Shown here in pieces: positions 1-6,281 of a DNA stretch of 6,281 nt (positions are counted from its first letter, which is position 1; each line of letters starts with the position of its first letter). The stretch comes from a virus. Lineage: Duplodnaviria > Heunggongvirae > Uroviricota > Caudoviricetes. The notes under the pieces are model-generated. The model searched no databases, was not told where the DNA came from, and worked only from the letters and a program-made list of their open reading frames with translations. The DNA lies in the IMG/VR virus record IMGVR_UViG_2675903559_000013, positions 1-6,281 of that record. The stretch is one strand, 5' to 3'. The position numbers and the translations under genes were made by a program.

Positions 1-43
1 ACGGAACGGTATCTGATGGCCACGGGATTGGTGCACCGACTGG
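1..43. repeat. Near-identical 43-bp junction repeat, copy A (encodes [14 protein letters not shown])
   Basis: acggaacggtatctgatggccacgggattggtgcaccgactgg differs from 3941-3983 at one position. Weaker similarity continues to about 61 / 4001 (PPAEFYPVG vs LPPESYPVG). Confidence 0.75.
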
Positions 44-1825
44 ATAAAACTCTGCAGGAGGATGAGCCGAGGTGTAAAGCTGCGCCCACGGCGACCAGTT
101 TGCGTCGGTCGTATCCCGTCGTGAACGAATAAATGCCGGAGCATGAGCACCGCTTGTACCACTCCAGCCGATGAGTAACTCACCTTCGCCAACGGCTGTC
201 ATCCCTTTCAGGTGAATGATATTTCCATACGCTGTTGGATATCCGTTGTTATACACCTCGTATAACTCAAGACCTGCTGCCCCCTGCGTATTGTCTGTCA
301 GCGCGGCTACCCGACCTTTTGAAGCCAGATTAACTGATGATACTGCTGTTCCACCTGACGGTAGCGCCCCGATCTCTGATGCCGTTGGCTTATTTCTGGA
401 GTTATAGTCCCTTCGCCAGCCAGGTGAATAATCTGTTCCGTGATTAATATAGGTAAACTGGGCGTTGGTTGTTCCGCCACCGCTGGATGTGGTCGGAGTG
501 GTAATGCGGATCGTCATCGCTGACTTTATCCCCATTACTTCAATGACAGCTCCGGCGAGATGAATATTACCGCAGCCAGTATCAGTAATGATTTTATTAT
601 TGCCATAAGACCAGGAACCCTTGCACATCCAGTATGGATGGTTAAATGCTCCCTGAGAATCCAGCCACTCGATAAACTGTGCAGTCGTCCAGTTTCCTGT
701 TGTTGTGCTTACTGACCCACCGAAGGCACGGCAGGCACCAATATTTTTCGTAAAGGTGTCTTTGCCAGGGATATCCGCACCGTTCTGATCTTTCTGCAGA
801 CGTTTCTCAGCATTGTCATTGGCTGCTTTTACTGCCTTTGGCGTTGCCGCCAGCGTTTCAGACGTGCTGTTGGTCGCGCTGCTTAGCTGGATTATCCCTT
901 TCTGTGCTGTCGTTGCATCCTGTGCGGTGTATTTCCCGTTAGCCAGGTCATACGCGGCCTTAACGGCTTTTGGTGTTGCCGCCAGTGACTCGGAAGTGCT
1001 GTTAGTCGCACTACTGAGCTGTACTATCCCCTTTTTCGTCGTGCTCGCATCCTCAAGCGCCACGGCGGATGCAATATCCTCTGCCCGTTTTGCCGCTGTC
1101 TCAGCGCGCGTTGCTGCAGATTCCGCCGTACTTTTGCTCTGAGCTGCTGCCGTCGCACTACCAGCAGCCTCTGTCGCCTTCGTGGATGCCGTCGTGGCGC
1201 TGCCCTTCGCTGCTGACGCCTGTCTGGTCGCCTCATCTTTTGAAGCAGACGCCGATGATGCCGATGACGCCGCCGAACTGGCGGACGATGCGGCAGCCGT
1301 TTTTGAGGATTCTGCACGGGTTTCCGACGCTTTCGCGTTCGTTTCGGATGTCTTCGCTGCGGAAGCTGACCTCGCTGCTGCCGTGGCCTGCTCAGTGGCT
1401 TCGCCAGCCTTCGTTGTGGCTGTTGAAGCAGACGATGCGGCACTTTCTGCCGATTTTCCGGCGGCGGTGGCACTGGCTGAGGCCTGCCCGGCACTTGTTG
1501 ACGCGGCACTGGCAGACGACGCAGCCGCTGTTTTTGAGCCTGCCGCAGCTGAGGCACTCTGTCCCGCTGCCGTTTCAGAAGACCTGGCGTTCGTCTCGGA
1601 CGTTTTGGCCGCCTTCGCAGAATTTGCAGCCGCCGTCGCCGAGGAAGCTGCGCTACTGGCGCTTGATGATGCGTTCGTTTCTGATGATTTCGCTGCCTCT
1701 TTTGAGGCCGCCGCATCCCGGGCTGAGGTGGCTGCTTCTGACGCCTTCGTGGTCGCGGCGGATGCAGAAGTGGCTGCTGATTGTTGTGACGCTGCCGCAT
1801 TCGTTTCTATGCAGGGGATATTGAT
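1..1825 (-). CDS. Second side tail fibre paralog (stf-like), open at its 3' end beyond the window start; no canonical start codon for its first ~254 codons, so it may be a gene fragment or recombination cassette
   Basis: Not in the ORF track because it has no stop within the window. I translated the minus frame (codons at 3k+2) codon by codon from 1825 to 2 with no stop, about 608 codons. It encodes the Ala/Ser/Thr-rich shaft repeat ([15 protein letters not shown]...), two tail-fibre repeat motifs ([26 protein letters not shown] and [26 protein letters not shown]), a distinct central domain ([49 protein letters not shown]...) and the conserved junction [20 protein letters not shown]. The first in-frame ATG/GTG/TTG from the 5' end is GTG at 1061-1063; a gene caller would probably start there. 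Confidence 0.6.
768..1807. repeat. Direct repeat copy A of the stf shaft/tail-fibre-repeat region (about 1040 bp)
   Basis: Aligns with 5167-6074 at offset 4399 below the indel and 4267 above it. Hand comparison of two 60-nt windows gave 3/60 and 5/60 mismatches. This copy carries an extra 132 bp (44 codons). Confidence 0.85.
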
Positions 1826-2401
1826 TTATGGTTGACTTGGCCACTCGATATCTGGAGATAGTGATGTATCAACACGGTTCAGCAACACCCGATACTTTTT
1901 CCAGGCTTCAAGCAACGAGGTTTCTTCCTCCGTTGCGATTTCCAGATCTGCAGCATCCTGAAGCGGCGCAATATGCTCACTGGCTACCTGCATCAGGCTG
2001 TTTTTTGTTTCTTCCGCCTCCCGGATCCGGAATAGTTTTTCTGCTTCTGCATCTTTCACCCAAGCTGTACCGTTCCACTTCTGATATTCCCCTTCCGGCG
2101 ACAACCAAGTAACATTTTCCGGTAACGGACCGAGTTCAGAAATAAATAACGCGTCCCCTGATGCCACGTCATAAACCGTTTTACCCCGATGATCTTCAAC
2201 GAGATGCCACGATGCATCATCACCGTTGAAAACAGCCACGAAGCCTGCCGGAATATCTGGCGGTGCAATATCGGTACTGTTTGCAGGTAGACCTGTATGA
2301 GGTGGAATGTATGCATCACCTTCACCAATAAATTCATTAGTTCCGGCCAGCAGATTATAAATTTTTATGGTCCGTGGTTGTTCAGTCATTCTAAAATCCA
2401 T
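1826..2401 (-). CDS. tfa: Tail fibre assembly protein (lambda Tfa-like chaperone)
   Basis: The translation from the ATG at 2399-2401 reads [58 protein letters not shown]..., near-identical over most of its length to lambda Tfa as recalled. The track begins at GTG 2407, but that GTG is part of the Shine-Dalgarno AGAGGTG (2405-2411), so the ATG three nt after it (2399-2401) is the likely start. Stop is TAA at 1826-1828. Confidence 0.9.
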
Positions 2402-2404
2402 GTT

Positions 2405-2411
2405 CACCTCT
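2405..2411 (-). promoter_or_regulatory. Shine-Dalgarno (AGAGGTG) for tfa
   Basis: The minus strand reads TAG-AGAGGTG-AAC-ATG: the macro-gene stop TAG is immediately followed by AGAGGTG, then a 3-nt spacer, then the tfa ATG. Confidence 0.6.
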
Positions 2412-3300
2412 ACTTAATATCAGAGACAGAATATTGTTTATTGAGCGTATGGGTGGGAGCACCAATAACGATGCTACTTCCGTGGCTATGTGCGCCAGAG
2501 GTGAGATTGCCTACGGGATTTTCTGGATTAAACCGGTGTGTATGCGAATCAGGGCGAGAGCGATTATTAGTCAGCACGTCATCAGCCTGATGCACATGGC
2601 TAATACAGAACTGCCCGGAACGTGAGCAATACGTCCGATAATCGCCGCATCCAATATATTTAGTATCCGCATAACGGCAAACAGAATTACCCGGACAGTA
2701 TGCATATGTGCCAAATACTGCCGACTGGCGGGAGTGTGCGTATTCCCAGTTAATTGATTCTGTTTTCTTATTAAAGTTATCCCATGCCTGCTTCATTTGC
2801 CGGGCAACGCTTTCAAACGGAACCTGACCACATCCGGCCCCCATTGCAGGGAATACCACCGTCTTTATTTTCCTGTCTGTCGTTGCGTTTTTATTGTGCT
2901 GAAAGATGGCAAGCAGAGCGGCCCAGGTTGCATTATATACAGCGTCTGTTCCGTCAATTGTCAGCGGAACACGCATTGTTGGCGCATGTACCAGCCAGGG
3001 GTGATGATTATGCCCCGTTTCAATTACAAATGCAGAACCTACAGGCTGTTCGCCTAGATATTCACGAAGAATATGATTCTGAACGCGGGACTGTAACTGA
3101 GTACCGAAGAATGCGGTAATGGCGGCATCAACGCCGCCATCCATCAGGCCGAAACTATTTGCCGCACTTACCATGCAGTCAAATTCTCTGATTGTTTCAA
3201 ATGGCTTTCCGACAATATTCACATTATCTGCGGTTGCAAATACCCGCTTAAATGCTTCAGCCATTTCTGTTACTGGTGCAGAAAGAATGAGCGTAATCAT
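2410..3300 (-). CDS. Macro-domain protein (ADP-ribose-binding/hydrolase fold) with a Cys/His-rich C-terminal extension; function unknown
   Basis: 296-aa ORF. Macro-domain signature motifs: [21 protein letters not shown] (aa 41-61; compare YmdB/MacroD D-x-I-V-N-A-A-N...G-G-G-V-D-G-A-I), [21 protein letters not shown] (aa 88-108) and [14 protein letters not shown] (aa 148-161; compare S/VAFPAISTGVYGYP). The C-terminal ~110 aa has 5 Cys (C202, C208, C218, C225, C232) plus His-rich stretches. Start ATG at 3298-3300 overlaps the stf TGA stop (ATGA), with GAGG at 3306-3309 five nt upstream. Stop is TAG at 2410-2412. Confidence 0.82.
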
Positions 3301-6281
3301 GCAAGCCTCACAATATAGTTAAATGCGATGTTTTTGACGGTGTTTTCCGCGTTACCAGCAGCGTTAACGGTGATGGTATGTCCATGTGAACCAATCGCAA
3401 CGGAGTGCGTGTGTGCACCAATACCGACAGTATGTGCGTGTGCACCTGCAGATGCTGCTGTGCCGGACAGTGAGTGGCTATGATTACCATCTGTACTGGT
3501 ATTAGCTAACCACCCCGTAGACATACCTACTGAGCCTTGTACACCCCAGGTATTTTGACCTGAGCTTGTATAACCATATTGATAAGTATCTTTAAAAACA
3601 CTGGGGTTAAATCGACGGCCATCTCTATGGCTGTGATTACCAGCTGCATTCGTGCTGCCACTTAAACTATGGGTATGCGCACCAGTGTTATTCGTGGATT
3701 TAGTGCCGTAATCAAACGACGATGTGGTTTTCGTCCCCAAATCCGTACTGGATGCGCTGGCGCTGTGGGTATGCGATTTAATGCCATCCTGTTCCTGAGA
3801 CAATACGGCACGACCACTGGCGGGCTTGCCCTTAATCGTCCAGCCACGCAAATCAGGGATCACGCCTGACGGATAAGCGGCAGCAAGTTTCGGGTAGGCA
3901 GATTTGTCAAAAGTCTGCCCCTGCATCAGGGCATAACCAGACGGAACGGTATCTGATGGCCACGGGATTGGTGCGCCGACTGGGTAGCTTTCTGGTGGAA
4001 GATTTTTCGAGGTATAAACTTCTGCCCAGTCTTCCTCAAAACCATAGCCATCTCTTGAAGAACGGTAGAACAGACCACCATTTCTGTAATGCGCCTTCAT
4101 CTGCAGGGTCCGGCAACTTCCGACTCCGGTATAGAAGTTAACCAGAATATAGCTGTCGCCAGAGCGGGTGACATTGTAAGCGCCTGATTCGGCATTCCAG
4201 GGAACGCCACCATCCGCATCGGCATATGTATCCGTTGCCCTTCTGGCAAAAGCAGCCACATGCGCGGCGGTTAAAGTAATATCTTTGGAACCATCAAACT
4301 CAACACCAGAAACCCGTCTTGGCGTTTGCAGCTTTGTTGCTGTTAATGCATTACCGTTCAGACTTGCGGACAGTTTGGTTCCAATAACCAGTTCGCCGGT
4401 TGCGTTATCAATAGCAAACGGTCTTAATGTATTCCAGCCACCATAAACATCACCTTGATTGGTAAGCAGCAGGTAAGTTTTAGCGCCATCATTACGCCAT
4501 AATGCCCCATACTCCCCACCTATCATTCGAATCTGATTACCACCACGCGCTACAATTTCGTCTGTGGCAAAAAGTTTTTTGCACGACAAGTTATCGTTAA
4601 CGATTAACGAATGAGACTCATAAAAACCACGCCCACTCTTAAAATCAAGGATAACGTCCGCCGCGATACATTCAGTCGCCGGATTTGTTGCCCCAAACTT
4701 ATAGGTCGTATCATTAACAACGAGATCAGCACCAGGTGCGGATATTGACAGGCCATCTTCGATAAACGCAAAAACAGGGAAAGCAGCGCCATCAACATAG
4801 AACACAGAGCGCAAATCATCGCCCTTATTACTCATCATTATTGAGTGGATGGCTCGTTCATTGTTTTGATATTGCCAGAACATTCCATAAGCATAACGCC
4901 CCCTGTCAGTCCAGCCACCAGGCATAACAAATCCGTTAAACTCGCAGTTATTCATCGGATCGCCTGCGGTTCGCGTTGCCGTGGTGATAATGACCCTTGA
5001 TGCCAGTTCGCTTACTGAGCCAGCAGAACGCATAACAACAACAGGGTAATATTTTCCAGATATTGCACCTGCAGGAGCGTTAACCCGCACATAACGCATA
5101 CCACGCTTATCAGCAAAGTCTGTTTTACTGACCGCGTTAATGTTGTTCAGGAAGCGTCCCTTATCGGGTATATCAGCGCCGTTCTGGTCTTTCTGCAGAC
5201 GTTTCTCTGCATTGTCATAGGCTGATTTTACTGCCTTTGGCGTTGCCGCCAGCGTTTCAGACGTACTGTTGGTCGCACTGCTGAGCTGTACTATCCCCTT
5301 TTTCGTCGTACTTGCATCCTCAAGCGCCACGGCGGATGCAATATCCTCTGCCCGTTTTGCCGCTGTCTCGGCGCGCGTTGCCGCGGATTCCGCCGTACTT
5401 TTGCTCTGTGCTGCCGCCGTCGCACTGCCAGCTGCCTCTGTCGCCTTCGTGGATGCTGTCGTGGCGCTGCCCTTCGCTGCGGACGCTTGTCTGGTCGCCT
5501 CATCTTTTGAAGCAGACGCCGATGATGCCGATGACGCCGCCGAACTGGCGGACGATGCGGCAGCCGTTTTTGAGGATTCTGCGCTGGTTTCCGACGCTTT
5601 CGCGTTCGTCTCGGATGTCTTCGCTGCGGAAGCAGACCTCGCTGCTGCGCTGGCCTGTTCAGTGGCTTCGCCAGCCTTCGTTGTGGCTGTTGAAGCAGAC
5701 GATGCGGCACTTTCTGCCGATTTTCCGGCGGCGGTGGCACTGGCTGAGGCCTGCCCGGCACTTGTTGACGCGGCACTGGCAGACGACGCAGCCGCTGTTT
5801 TTGAGCCTGCCGCAGCCGAGGCGCTCTGTTCCGCTGCCGTTTCAGAAGACCTGGCGTTTGTCTCAGACGTCTTTGCCGCCTTCGCGGAATTGCCTGCCGC
5901 CGTTGCCGAGGAAGCGGCACTACTGGCGCTTGATGATGCGTTCGTTTCTGATGATTTTGCCGCCTCTTTTGAAGCCGACGCATCCCGGGCTGAGGTGGCA
6001 GCTTCTGACGCTTTCGTGGTCGCGGTGGATGCAGAAGTGGCTGCTGATTGTTGTGACGCTGCCGCATTCGTTTCTAACGTTTTCGCCGCACCGGCACTGG
6101 TAGCCGCCGCGCTTTTTGAGGACTCTGCAGCGGCAGCACTTTTTGAGGCTTCAGTGGCCTTTGTTGATGCCGTTCCTGCGCTGGAAGACGCTGACTGAGC
6201 CGACGAAGCGGCCTGTCCGGCTGACGTGCTGGCTGCACGTGCTGAATCTGCAGCATCAGTCGCATGGGTTGCCGCCTCACG
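3297..6281 (-). CDS. stf: Side tail fibre protein (lambda Stf-like), 5'-partial; the N-terminus lies beyond the window end
   Basis: The track ORF 3297..5330 ends ...[47 protein letters not shown], matching the lambda Stf C-terminus as recalled. It also carries [26 protein letters not shown] (tail-fibre repeat motif) and [35 protein letters not shown] translated the same frame upstream of the track's GTG (5328-5330) codon by codon to 6281 and found no stop and no ATG/GTG/TTG; it encodes Ala/Ser/Thr-rich ...AAKTSETNA... repeats typical of the Stf shaft. The track start at 5330 is therefore only the first in-frame start codon, not the real start. Stop is TGA at 3297-3299. Confidence 0.92.
3306..3311 (-). 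promoter_or_regulatory. Shine-Dalgarno (GTGAGG) for the macro-domain gene, embedded in the last codons of stf
   Basis: The minus strand reads AACTATATTGTGAGGCTTGC-ATG-A: GAGG lies 5 nt upstream of the ATG, and the ATG overlaps the stf TGA stop, consistent with translational coupling. Confidence 0.55.
3941..3983. repeat. Near-identical 43-bp junction repeat, copy B, inside stf at the central-domain/C-terminal-domain boundary
   Basis: acggaacggtatctgatggccacgggattggtgcgccgactgg; direct orientation relative to 1-43. Confidence 0.75.
5167..6074. repeat. Direct repeat copy B of the stf shaft/tail-fibre-repeat region (about 908 bp)
   Basis: Same alignment as above. Homology ends at ...cgtttcta (1807 / 6074), after which copy B continues as stf coding sequence whereas copy A abuts the tfa stop 18 nt later. 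Confidence 0.85.

Follow-up and report, generated by a model that had tools for sequence, protein, structure and literature searches.

A macro-domain protein of phage fibre cassettes with a conserved cysteine module and a fibre-like HxH tail

We analysed a stretch of 6,281 nucleotides from a tailed virus of the class Caudoviricetes (IMG/VR record IMGVR_UViG_2675903559_000013, positions 1-6,281; hereafter the window), in which the genes discussed below all lie on the minus strand. Between the gene for a side tail fibre (stf) and a tail fibre assembly gene (tfa) we identified a gene of 296 codons (2410..3300), belonging to PHROG 2613 and annotated as "macro domain-containing protein" or "phage tail protein". 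Its product consists of a macro domain, a family-specific cysteine module, and a hypervariable tail with His-x-His (HxH) motifs that, on profile and DNA comparisons, is derived from the needle strand of an Stf-type fibre. We propose, with a probability of about 0.5, that the extension is a structural knot of four cysteines followed by a metal-stapled, fibre-derived trimerisation tail, carried by a late-expressed macro enzyme.

The initial annotation of this DNA, made from the sequence alone, had drawn attention to a Cys/His-rich extension at 2410-2745, and proposed that it was a zinc-binding module, a tether to the fibre, or a fragment of a fibre tip acquired by recombination. This interval corresponds to residues 186-296 and the stop codon, whereas the extension proper begins near residue 198, the macro fold running to approximately residue 197. 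The translation of 2410-3300 contains cysteines at positions 42, 157, 202, 208, 218, 225 and 232, HxH motifs at 97 (HNH), 235 (HVH), 253 (HTH) and 271 (HSH), and a T-H-T string at 283-285; the cysteine spacing (C-x5-C-x9-C-x6-C-x6-C), the HxH strings and the APTHT string are all present as described, the latter being a degenerate copy of a GAHTHT unit that is still intact in near-identical relatives. Shuffling of the whole protein produced at least three HxH motifs in the last 101 residues in 0.17% of trials, shuffling of the C-terminus only in 0.35%, and five cysteines within 31 residues arose in 0.67% of shuffles. The clustering of both motifs is unlikely to have arisen by chance (p about 0.002-0.007).

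Cysteine module and HxH tail of the macro protein

The tail comprises residues 242-296 (2413..2577), with the strings SHTH (2536-2544), GAHSH (2482-2496) and the degenerate GAPTHT (2446-2463). Similar strings had been reported in the fibre encoded immediately upstream, and we recovered them there: the needle region of Stf (3366..3773) contains seven HxH motifs in total, with GAHTHS at residue 552, a second HxH string at residues 629-645, and a run with a period of nine residues at 3378-3446. Comparison of two tail alignments with eight fibre C-termini in hhalign returned probabilities of 95.1% and 93.8% (E 3e-8 and 2e-7, each for a single comparison), with the tail motifs aligned to the nine-residue-period GxHxHxVxI run of Stf. 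The observed scores were reached by 0/200 and 1/200 column-shuffled tail alignments, indicating that composition alone does not explain the match. We additionally identified, in Salmonella tails of types C and E, in-frame identity at 39 of 50 nucleotides, third codon positions included, between IYIGAHTHTIDTGAHNHT and the fibre sequence VYIGGHEHTMYIGPHGHV, which points to common descent or gene conversion rather than convergence. The region matched in the fibre is the HxH needle strand and not the receptor-binding tip. The proposed origin from a fibre by recombination is therefore borne out for the HxH tail, by profile and by the Salmonella DNA, although the source resembles the needle and not the tip, and no similarity to the fibre is seen in the cysteine module. 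We also considered a tip-less, up-and-down mini-needle, for which the resemblance between the macro protein and Stf is by eye only, with no support at the DNA level, and which we regard as speculation. Recent exchange between the tail of the window and E. coli fibre genes was not seen, blastn matches being to macro genes only.

Conservation was assessed in an alignment of 21 members, alongside an inspection of 91 distinct C-termini. In this alignment G251-x-H253-x-H255 and H273 are at least 90% conserved, such that HTH253 and HSH271 count among the conserved motifs of the extension. Across the family the sequence following a conserved H-Q-x-D-D motif is a hypervariable mosaic of at least six unrelated tail types, of 17 to 62 residues. 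At least one HxH is nevertheless found in 52 of the 55 distinct tails, and at least two in 38 of the 55, mostly in a G-A-H-x-H context and at spacings of mainly 9, 11 and 18 residues; that the motif should persist in tail types with no relation to each other speaks against decay alone. The third motif takes the form GAHTHT, GAPTHT or GTPTHT in IMG/VR loci (L095-L131) that are 93-100% identical, the window carrying GAPTHT (2446-2463), while in a sister tail type it is the second unit that is broken (GAYNHG); each variant retains at least two intact units. Crude pairwise NG86 estimates of the ratio of nonsynonymous to synonymous substitution rates (dN/dS), made for the tail in four lineages, were 0.29 in the 289-residue E. 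coli lineage and 0.38 in the 274-residue Salmonella lineage, indicating purifying selection in both.

The cysteine module (residues 198-241; 2578..2709) precedes the tail and is defined by its conservation among relatives, in which the commonest pattern is AYC-x4-5-C-x16-C-x6-C-IS..H237-Q238-x-D-D. Conservation is complete for C202, C225 and C232 and at least 90% for C208, in relatives from E. coli, Salmonella, Erwinia, Citrobacter and Enterobacter, and the dN/dS of the module (0.13-0.52) indicates purifying selection. The five-cysteine pattern initially proposed thus contracts to four, as C218 (2647-2649) is lineage-specific and is replaced by F, L, S or Q in other homologues. Similarly, within the HVH string H237 is conserved as part of H-Q-x-D-D, whereas H235, and with it the HxH form, is not. 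Cysteine and histidine positions are therefore conserved in homologues, and similarity to the fibre is detectable in the tail; it was the lack of these that the initial annotation had named as grounds against its proposal.

We could not relate the module to any known domain. It has no match in Pfam; a sequence search of the PDB with the C-terminal 111-116 residues returned nothing at E <= 10; a profile of 20 C-termini produced a single chance match against the PDB (E 2.8); and a HMMER search of 1.84 billion representatives recovered only fragments of the same macro-tail family and one spurious repeat protein. No similarity of the cysteine module to fibres was detected. In IMG/VR every locus that contains the module also encodes a macro domain, or the remnant of one. 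Structure prediction, which had been suggested as a check on the C-terminus, was run with AlphaFold2 on the monomer, and gave short beta-hairpins in the module in both runs (predicted local distance difference test score, pLDDT, 40-59), within an extension that is modelled throughout at low confidence. The spacings Cx5C and Cx6C are not those of a CxxC zinc knuckle. The suggestion of a metal-binding module is thus favoured by four conserved cysteines under purifying selection, and disfavoured by the missing CxxC spacing and the lack of a zinc-finger match in Pfam or the PDB. From sequence, the four cysteines fit either a structural metal site or a disulfide knot, and four invariant cysteines in a protein made in the cytoplasm suggest the former, with zinc as the metal.

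An origin of the module from frameshifted HxH repeats of the fibre was also considered, as the +1 frame relative to the macro gene contains HxH-like sequence at 2571-2714 (GNTHT...AHMHTVRVI). Out-of-frame blastn matches were weak (E 0.01-9). In tblastn of fibre DNA with the composition correction off, the E values were 0.17 for the coding strand and 0.005 for the reverse strand, the latter match running across a stop codon. This origin was not supported, and we judged the resemblance to be a composition effect of GCN-CAY repeats.

Residues 1-197 (2710..3300) form a Poa1/MacroD-like macro domain, as identified from Pfam, from the predicted fold and from its motifs. Pfam Macro (PF01661) matched residues 44-169 with 68.1 bits against a cut-off of 22, and Macro_2 scored just below its threshold. 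The motifs N48-x6-GGVD58 and G154-A-G-C-G158 are present, N48, D54-G55-G56, D58, G154 and G158 are invariant in an alignment of 105 sequences, and all of the 36 invariant columns of that alignment are kept in the phage protein. From 21 close homologues AlphaFold2 initially modelled the protein poorly (pLDDT 52), and residues 1-200 exceeded a pLDDT of 90 once 73 stand-alone macro proteins were added to the alignment. The best fold match in the PDB is 1njr, the yeast ADP-ribose-1''-monophosphatase Ymx7/Poa1 (E 3.5e-11), followed by many MacroD, macroH2A and YmdB structures; Foldseek returned 165 PDB matches at E <= 0.001, of which the best 50 are nearly all macro domains. The domain is under strong purifying selection (dN/dS 0.09-0.21). 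Taken together, sequence and model indicate a macro domain of bacterial type that is probably catalytically competent.

Models of DarG, of defence systems and of NCBIfam equivalogs fell far short of their thresholds: the DarG model NF048014 scored 12.5 bits against a cut-off of 250, the PADLOC DarG model matched residues 138-176 only (39 residues, E 0.0046), and the DarG of Mycobacterium tuberculosis ranked only 45th among the fold matches, which are led by Poa1. Over residues 1 to about 197 the phage protein is approximately 50% identical to stand-alone proteins of 200-215 residues from Chloroflexi, cyanobacteria, Acidobacteria and other phyla. These proteins stop at the equivalent of residue 197 or thereabouts, as in Acaryochloris, in which the sequence ends ...ISWPFAITRHNAIGAGGG, and the absence of the extension from them indicates that residues 198-296 are a phage-specific addition. 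The stand-alone bacterial genes have no conserved neighbour; an adjoining ADP-ribosylglycohydrolase gene was found in one of three neighbourhoods.

The fibre cassette and its distribution

The macro gene is tightly packed between its neighbours. Upstream, the stf frame ends at 3297 and is open over 994 codons, as far as the right edge of the window, and its distal part (3297..5330) matches Pfam Phage_fiber_2, Gp34_trimer, gp37_C, Collar and Phage_fiber; the corresponding gene in the plasmid prophage pAH01-1 is annotated as a prophage tail fibre. The TGA stop of stf overlaps the ATG of the macro gene by four nucleotides (ATGA). Downstream, tfa (1826..2401, ATG at 2401; Pfam Caudo_TAP, E 1e-43) has a Shine-Dalgarno sequence, GAGGTG, that abuts the macro stop codon. 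No promoter- or terminator-like sites were found around the macro gene above shuffle expectation, indicating that it is part of the late fibre operon. These three features also led us to rule out an autonomous moron with its own promoter and terminator.

A second, 5'-truncated copy of stf (1..1822, in the region 1-1835) follows directly after tfa. It begins inside an Ala/Ser-rich repeat with no start codon, shares repeats of 82-91% identity with 5139-5513, and then gives way to a distal part of different sequence, which is cut off by the left edge of the window. The direct repeats of the window pair 947-1246 with 5214-5513 (91%), 740-921 with 5139-5320, and 1-88 with 3941-4028. A truncated stf in this position is expected if a cassette of stf 3' end, macro gene and tfa had recombined into a resident stf, and the repeat structure suggests that the cassette arrived by recombination within the Ala/Ser-rich repeat, the second stf being the remnant of the resident fibre gene.

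The same arrangement is found throughout the family. In all of the 70 evaluable IMG/VR loci the fibre ends in N[YF][IL]V[RK]LA and its stop codon overlaps the ATG of the macro gene, and a Tfa motif follows the macro gene in 71 of 72 loci. We identified the order fibre, macro gene, tfa in the N15-like linear plasmid prophage pAH01-1, in Gifsy-1 (STM2588.1n), in the myovirus Chuche, adjoining baseplate genes, and additionally in a Mu-like Salmonella prophage, in lambdoid Salmonella prophages, and in phage-plasmids of approximately 100 kb. The recurrence of one order in unrelated phage backgrounds indicates that the cassette moves between phage types. Its tight linkage may reflect a function with the fibre, or merely conserved flanks that are recombinogenic.

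At E <= 0.001 the family comprises 1,719 database clusters; each of the 120 clusters listed represents a full-length relative or a fragment of one. Named members are known from E. coli, E. albertii, E. fergusonii, Salmonella, Citrobacter, Enterobacter and Erwinia, and relatives are encoded on more than 100 IMG/VR viral contigs as well as in the Gifsy-1 prophage of Salmonella LT2. PHROG 2613, which covers residues 1-266, is described as of "unknown function". Of 5,426 complete E. coli genomes only 119-128 (about 2%) carry the gene, indicating that it is accessory.

Individual loci depart from the common architecture. In four Salmonella prophage contigs (L235, L238, L243 and L244; about 1400-1746) the fibre stop is followed directly by M153-GAGCGQV..., such that macro residues 1-152 are lost, whereas the last quarter of the macro domain, from residue 153 onward, is retained in frame with the cysteine module and the HxH tail. 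Izhakiella australiensis (L011/L012, 120-1022) encodes a relative of 300 residues, followed by tfa, with a macro domain approximately 70% identical and an entirely different, GC-rich Cys/His tail (GCDCGCG..., RHNHYIHTGAHTHS..., CHDH...) that contains GAHTHS. In E. coli STEC434 (H98, NZ_CP129383.1, 3505266-3512134) a gene for an S-adenosylmethionine-dependent methyltransferase, a recombinase gene and two tfa genes surround the macro gene, and this may be an invertible or rearranged fibre locus. Finally, in the phage-plasmid pLR-64-1_1 (L005, 2675-4361), in which the macro gene is annotated as frameshifted, genes for a lipopolysaccharide N-acetylglucosaminyltransferase and an acetyltransferase adjoin tfa in opposite orientation. 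Such genes are typical O-antigen-modifying cargo.

A proposed mechanism and its alternatives

In the mechanism that we propose, the macro domain, otherwise of an ordinary bacterial type, is predicted to bind or hydrolyse ADP-ribose. Residues 198-241 would form a small beta-hairpin module held by the four conserved cysteines, most likely as a structural zinc site, or alternatively as two disulfide-closed loops. Residues 242-296 would be a short G-A-H-x-H array descended from an Stf-type needle strand. Three symmetry-related HxH motifs form an octahedral iron site in T4 gp37, in the fibres of R1 and R2 pyocins, in P2 gpV and in phi92 spikes (PMC6116203, PMC11705849). By analogy with T4 gp37, R-pyocin fibres and P2 gpV, three chains of the macro protein would be brought into register, with one metal ion coordinated octahedrally at each HxH layer; two or three ions would staple the trimer, which would carry a miniature fibre-like stalk. 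The gene is coupled to stf in translation, lacks its own promoter and terminator, and has tfa directly after it; the protein would therefore be made together with the fibre, and Tfa might plausibly help to fold its fibre-like tail, although this is speculative.

A number of observations weigh against this mechanism. The spacing Cx5C ... Cx6C is atypical for zinc ribbons. The tail of the window has no match to Pfam Phage_fiber (PF03335), for which relatives reach 10.2-15.5 bits against a cut-off of 20; BLASTP of the tail against its own Stf is marginal (E 0.065); and blastn of 2410-2745 in "distant" mode against the 5,426 E. coli genomes recovered macro genes only, in 128 genomes, and no fibre gene. 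One HxH is broken in the lineage of the window (GAPTHT) as it is in the sister type (GAYNHG), three of the 55 tails contain none, and truncated tails exist (P0107, L133). The tail dN/dS is 0.77-0.91 in the 296- and 300-residue lineages, the former including the window, such that the tail here appears to evolve near-neutrally or under diversifying selection, consistent with its broken third motif. In the AlphaFold2 monomer the extension has a pLDDT of 27-59 (27-45 in the tail), a value that would be expected alike for an obligate-oligomer segment and for disorder. To our knowledge, a single-pass tail with two or three HxH layers would also be much shorter than any solved needle.

Several of these observations would suit a history, the main rival but in our view rather unlikely as a full account, in which recombination brought the macro gene into the fibre cassette, where its 3' end was taken from the 3' coding part of a fibre, and the HxH tail is now functionless and decaying, such that only the macro domain, and perhaps the cysteine module, matters. 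The near-neutral lineages, the alternation of the third motif between loci that are almost identical, the variation in tail length, the tails that are truncated or without HxH, and the low pLDDT of the extension would all be explained by it; furthermore, the conserved flanks (the stf end and the 5' end of tfa) would spread any inserted gene by homologous recombination, and the window itself displays a cassette insertion of this kind. Decay is harder to reconcile with the HxH counts and regular spacings retained in at least six unrelated tail types and in five genera, with the Izhakiella tail, different yet equally rich in cysteine and histidine, with the dN/dS of 0.29-0.38 in the 289- and 274-residue lineages, with a frame that is open in more than 100 loci, and with deletion variants that have lost most of the macro domain and kept the module and the tail. 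It is distinctly doubtful that, as the initial annotation had also suggested, the extension is a tether, in which the HxH tail and the cysteine module would dock the macro domain on the Stf trimer or on Tfa, as a virion-borne accessory at the fibre tip, comparable in position to the gp38-type adhesins that are encoded after gp37. The constant position of the gene between fibre and chaperone, with its ATGA overlap, a tail that is mosaic and hypervariable like the distal parts of fibres, and a PHROG 2613 macro gene inside the structural module of the Microcystis phage Mae-JY35 would accord with docking. However, the same tail type occurs with different fibre tip sequences (L003 and L007), indicating that it does not co-vary with the receptor-binding part; the adjoining Stf and Tfa look complete and canonical; no proteomic report of virion association was found in the literature; and the name "tail protein" on macro proteins seems to have spread by annotation transfer. 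The macro domain is moreover approximately 50% identical to cytoplasmic bacterial enzymes and keeps all of their invariant residues, which argues for an intracellular substrate of ADP-ribose type and not for a surface one.

The macro domain might alternatively reverse ADP-ribosylation, or destroy or sequester immune signals derived from ADP-ribose, with the tail oligomerising the enzyme or placing it at the complex of fibre and chaperone, which can set off immunity of this kind. Such an anti-defence role is conceivable for the family, but is speculation, and we hold it to be highly unlikely. There is precedent in AdfM, a DarG2-like macrodomain of chimalliviruses that acts as an anti-DarT2 factor, showing that phages deploy macro domains against ADP-ribosylating defences (PMC13309987), and in N4-like Pseudomonas phages, in which side tail fibres and their chaperones set the activation of type II Thoeris, a system that signals with His-ADPR (bioRxiv 10.64898/2026.06.04.730250). 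The strong purifying selection on the macro domain and the accessory distribution of the gene would also be compatible with it. In contrast, the protein is not DarG-like by model scores or fold, expression from a late operon would be poorly timed for counter-defence, and the Thoeris finding was made in another host and another family of phages. A broader proposal, which we put forward as very unlikely, is that the cysteine module and the mini HxH needle act as an adaptor, by which a trimeric enzyme that processes ADP-ribose would be loaded onto the fibre or onto the assembly line of Stf and Tfa; the protein would then represent a new class of fibre-cassette cargo, travelling with receptor-binding modules between unrelated phages, with a function possibly tied to ADP-ribose-based immunity triggered by fibres and their chaperones.

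Relation to known systems and significance

The tail shares with the HxH needles of T4 gp37 and lambda Stf, R-pyocin and P2 gpV the G-x-H-x-H repeats, the hydrophobic residues two and four positions later, and the nine-residue spacing. It differs from them in containing only two to three motifs (zero to three across relatives) in 17-62 residues, with neither a collar, a tip domain nor the conserved fibre end, and in being joined to an enzyme instead of a shaft. Residues 1-197 share fold and ADP-ribose-binding loops with domains of the Poa1p/Ymx7 and MacroD types, whereas in the known members of these types the C-terminus is not extended by a Cys/His region, nor are their genes part of fibre operons. 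AdfM is likewise a phage-encoded macro-domain protein, but is DarG2-like with a catalytic lysine, enters the phage nucleus by import and lacks a fibre-like tail, while the present protein is Poa1-like. The T2 and S16 gp38 adhesins and Tfa/gpU are comparable in their position immediately downstream of the distal fibre gene, with which they are co-expressed. They have no sequence or domain similarity to the macro protein, gp38 being characterised by glycine-rich motifs and Tfa by the Caudo_TAP fold, and a canonical Tfa is additionally present here.

Macro proteins outside the fibre cassette were found in other genetic settings. In Microcystis phage Mae-JY35 (L255, 3435-3992) the gene for a PHROG 2613 protein of 185 residues, without the extension, is tied by overlapping stop and start codons into a block of structural genes of the virion, including one for a protein with a peptidase S74 chaperone domain. 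The macro gene of Klebsiella phage FBKp24 lies among genes for nucleotide and RNA metabolism, five genes from an RNA 2'-phosphotransferase, a setting that would be consistent with a Poa1-like function in the processing of Appr>p or Appr-1''-p. The names "phage tail protein" and "tail protein" are attached to stand-alone macro proteins of cyanobacteria (P0130, P0153) and of jumbo phages (H29, H33, H40, H42), and they seem to have been carried over from the enterobacterial family. The spread of this name to unrelated stand-alone macro proteins in both groups is an annotation problem in its own right.

While macro domains and HxH fibre needles are both familiar in themselves, their fusion within a fibre cassette appears to be new. 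Literature searches on macro domains together with tail fibres, side tail fibres or Gifsy returned no report of the macro-tail family, and in the literature searched a macro enzyme with a fibre-derived HxH tail, encoded between a fibre gene and its chaperone and held there by translational coupling, has not previously been described. The family moves among siphovirus, myovirus and phage-plasmid backgrounds as part of this cassette. Should trimerisation of the tail around metal ions prove real, the tail would be the shortest HxH needle in nature, and a ready-made trimerisation tag borrowed from the fibre. If the protein rides on virions, or counters defences based on ADP-ribose, it would link host-range modules to counter-defence.

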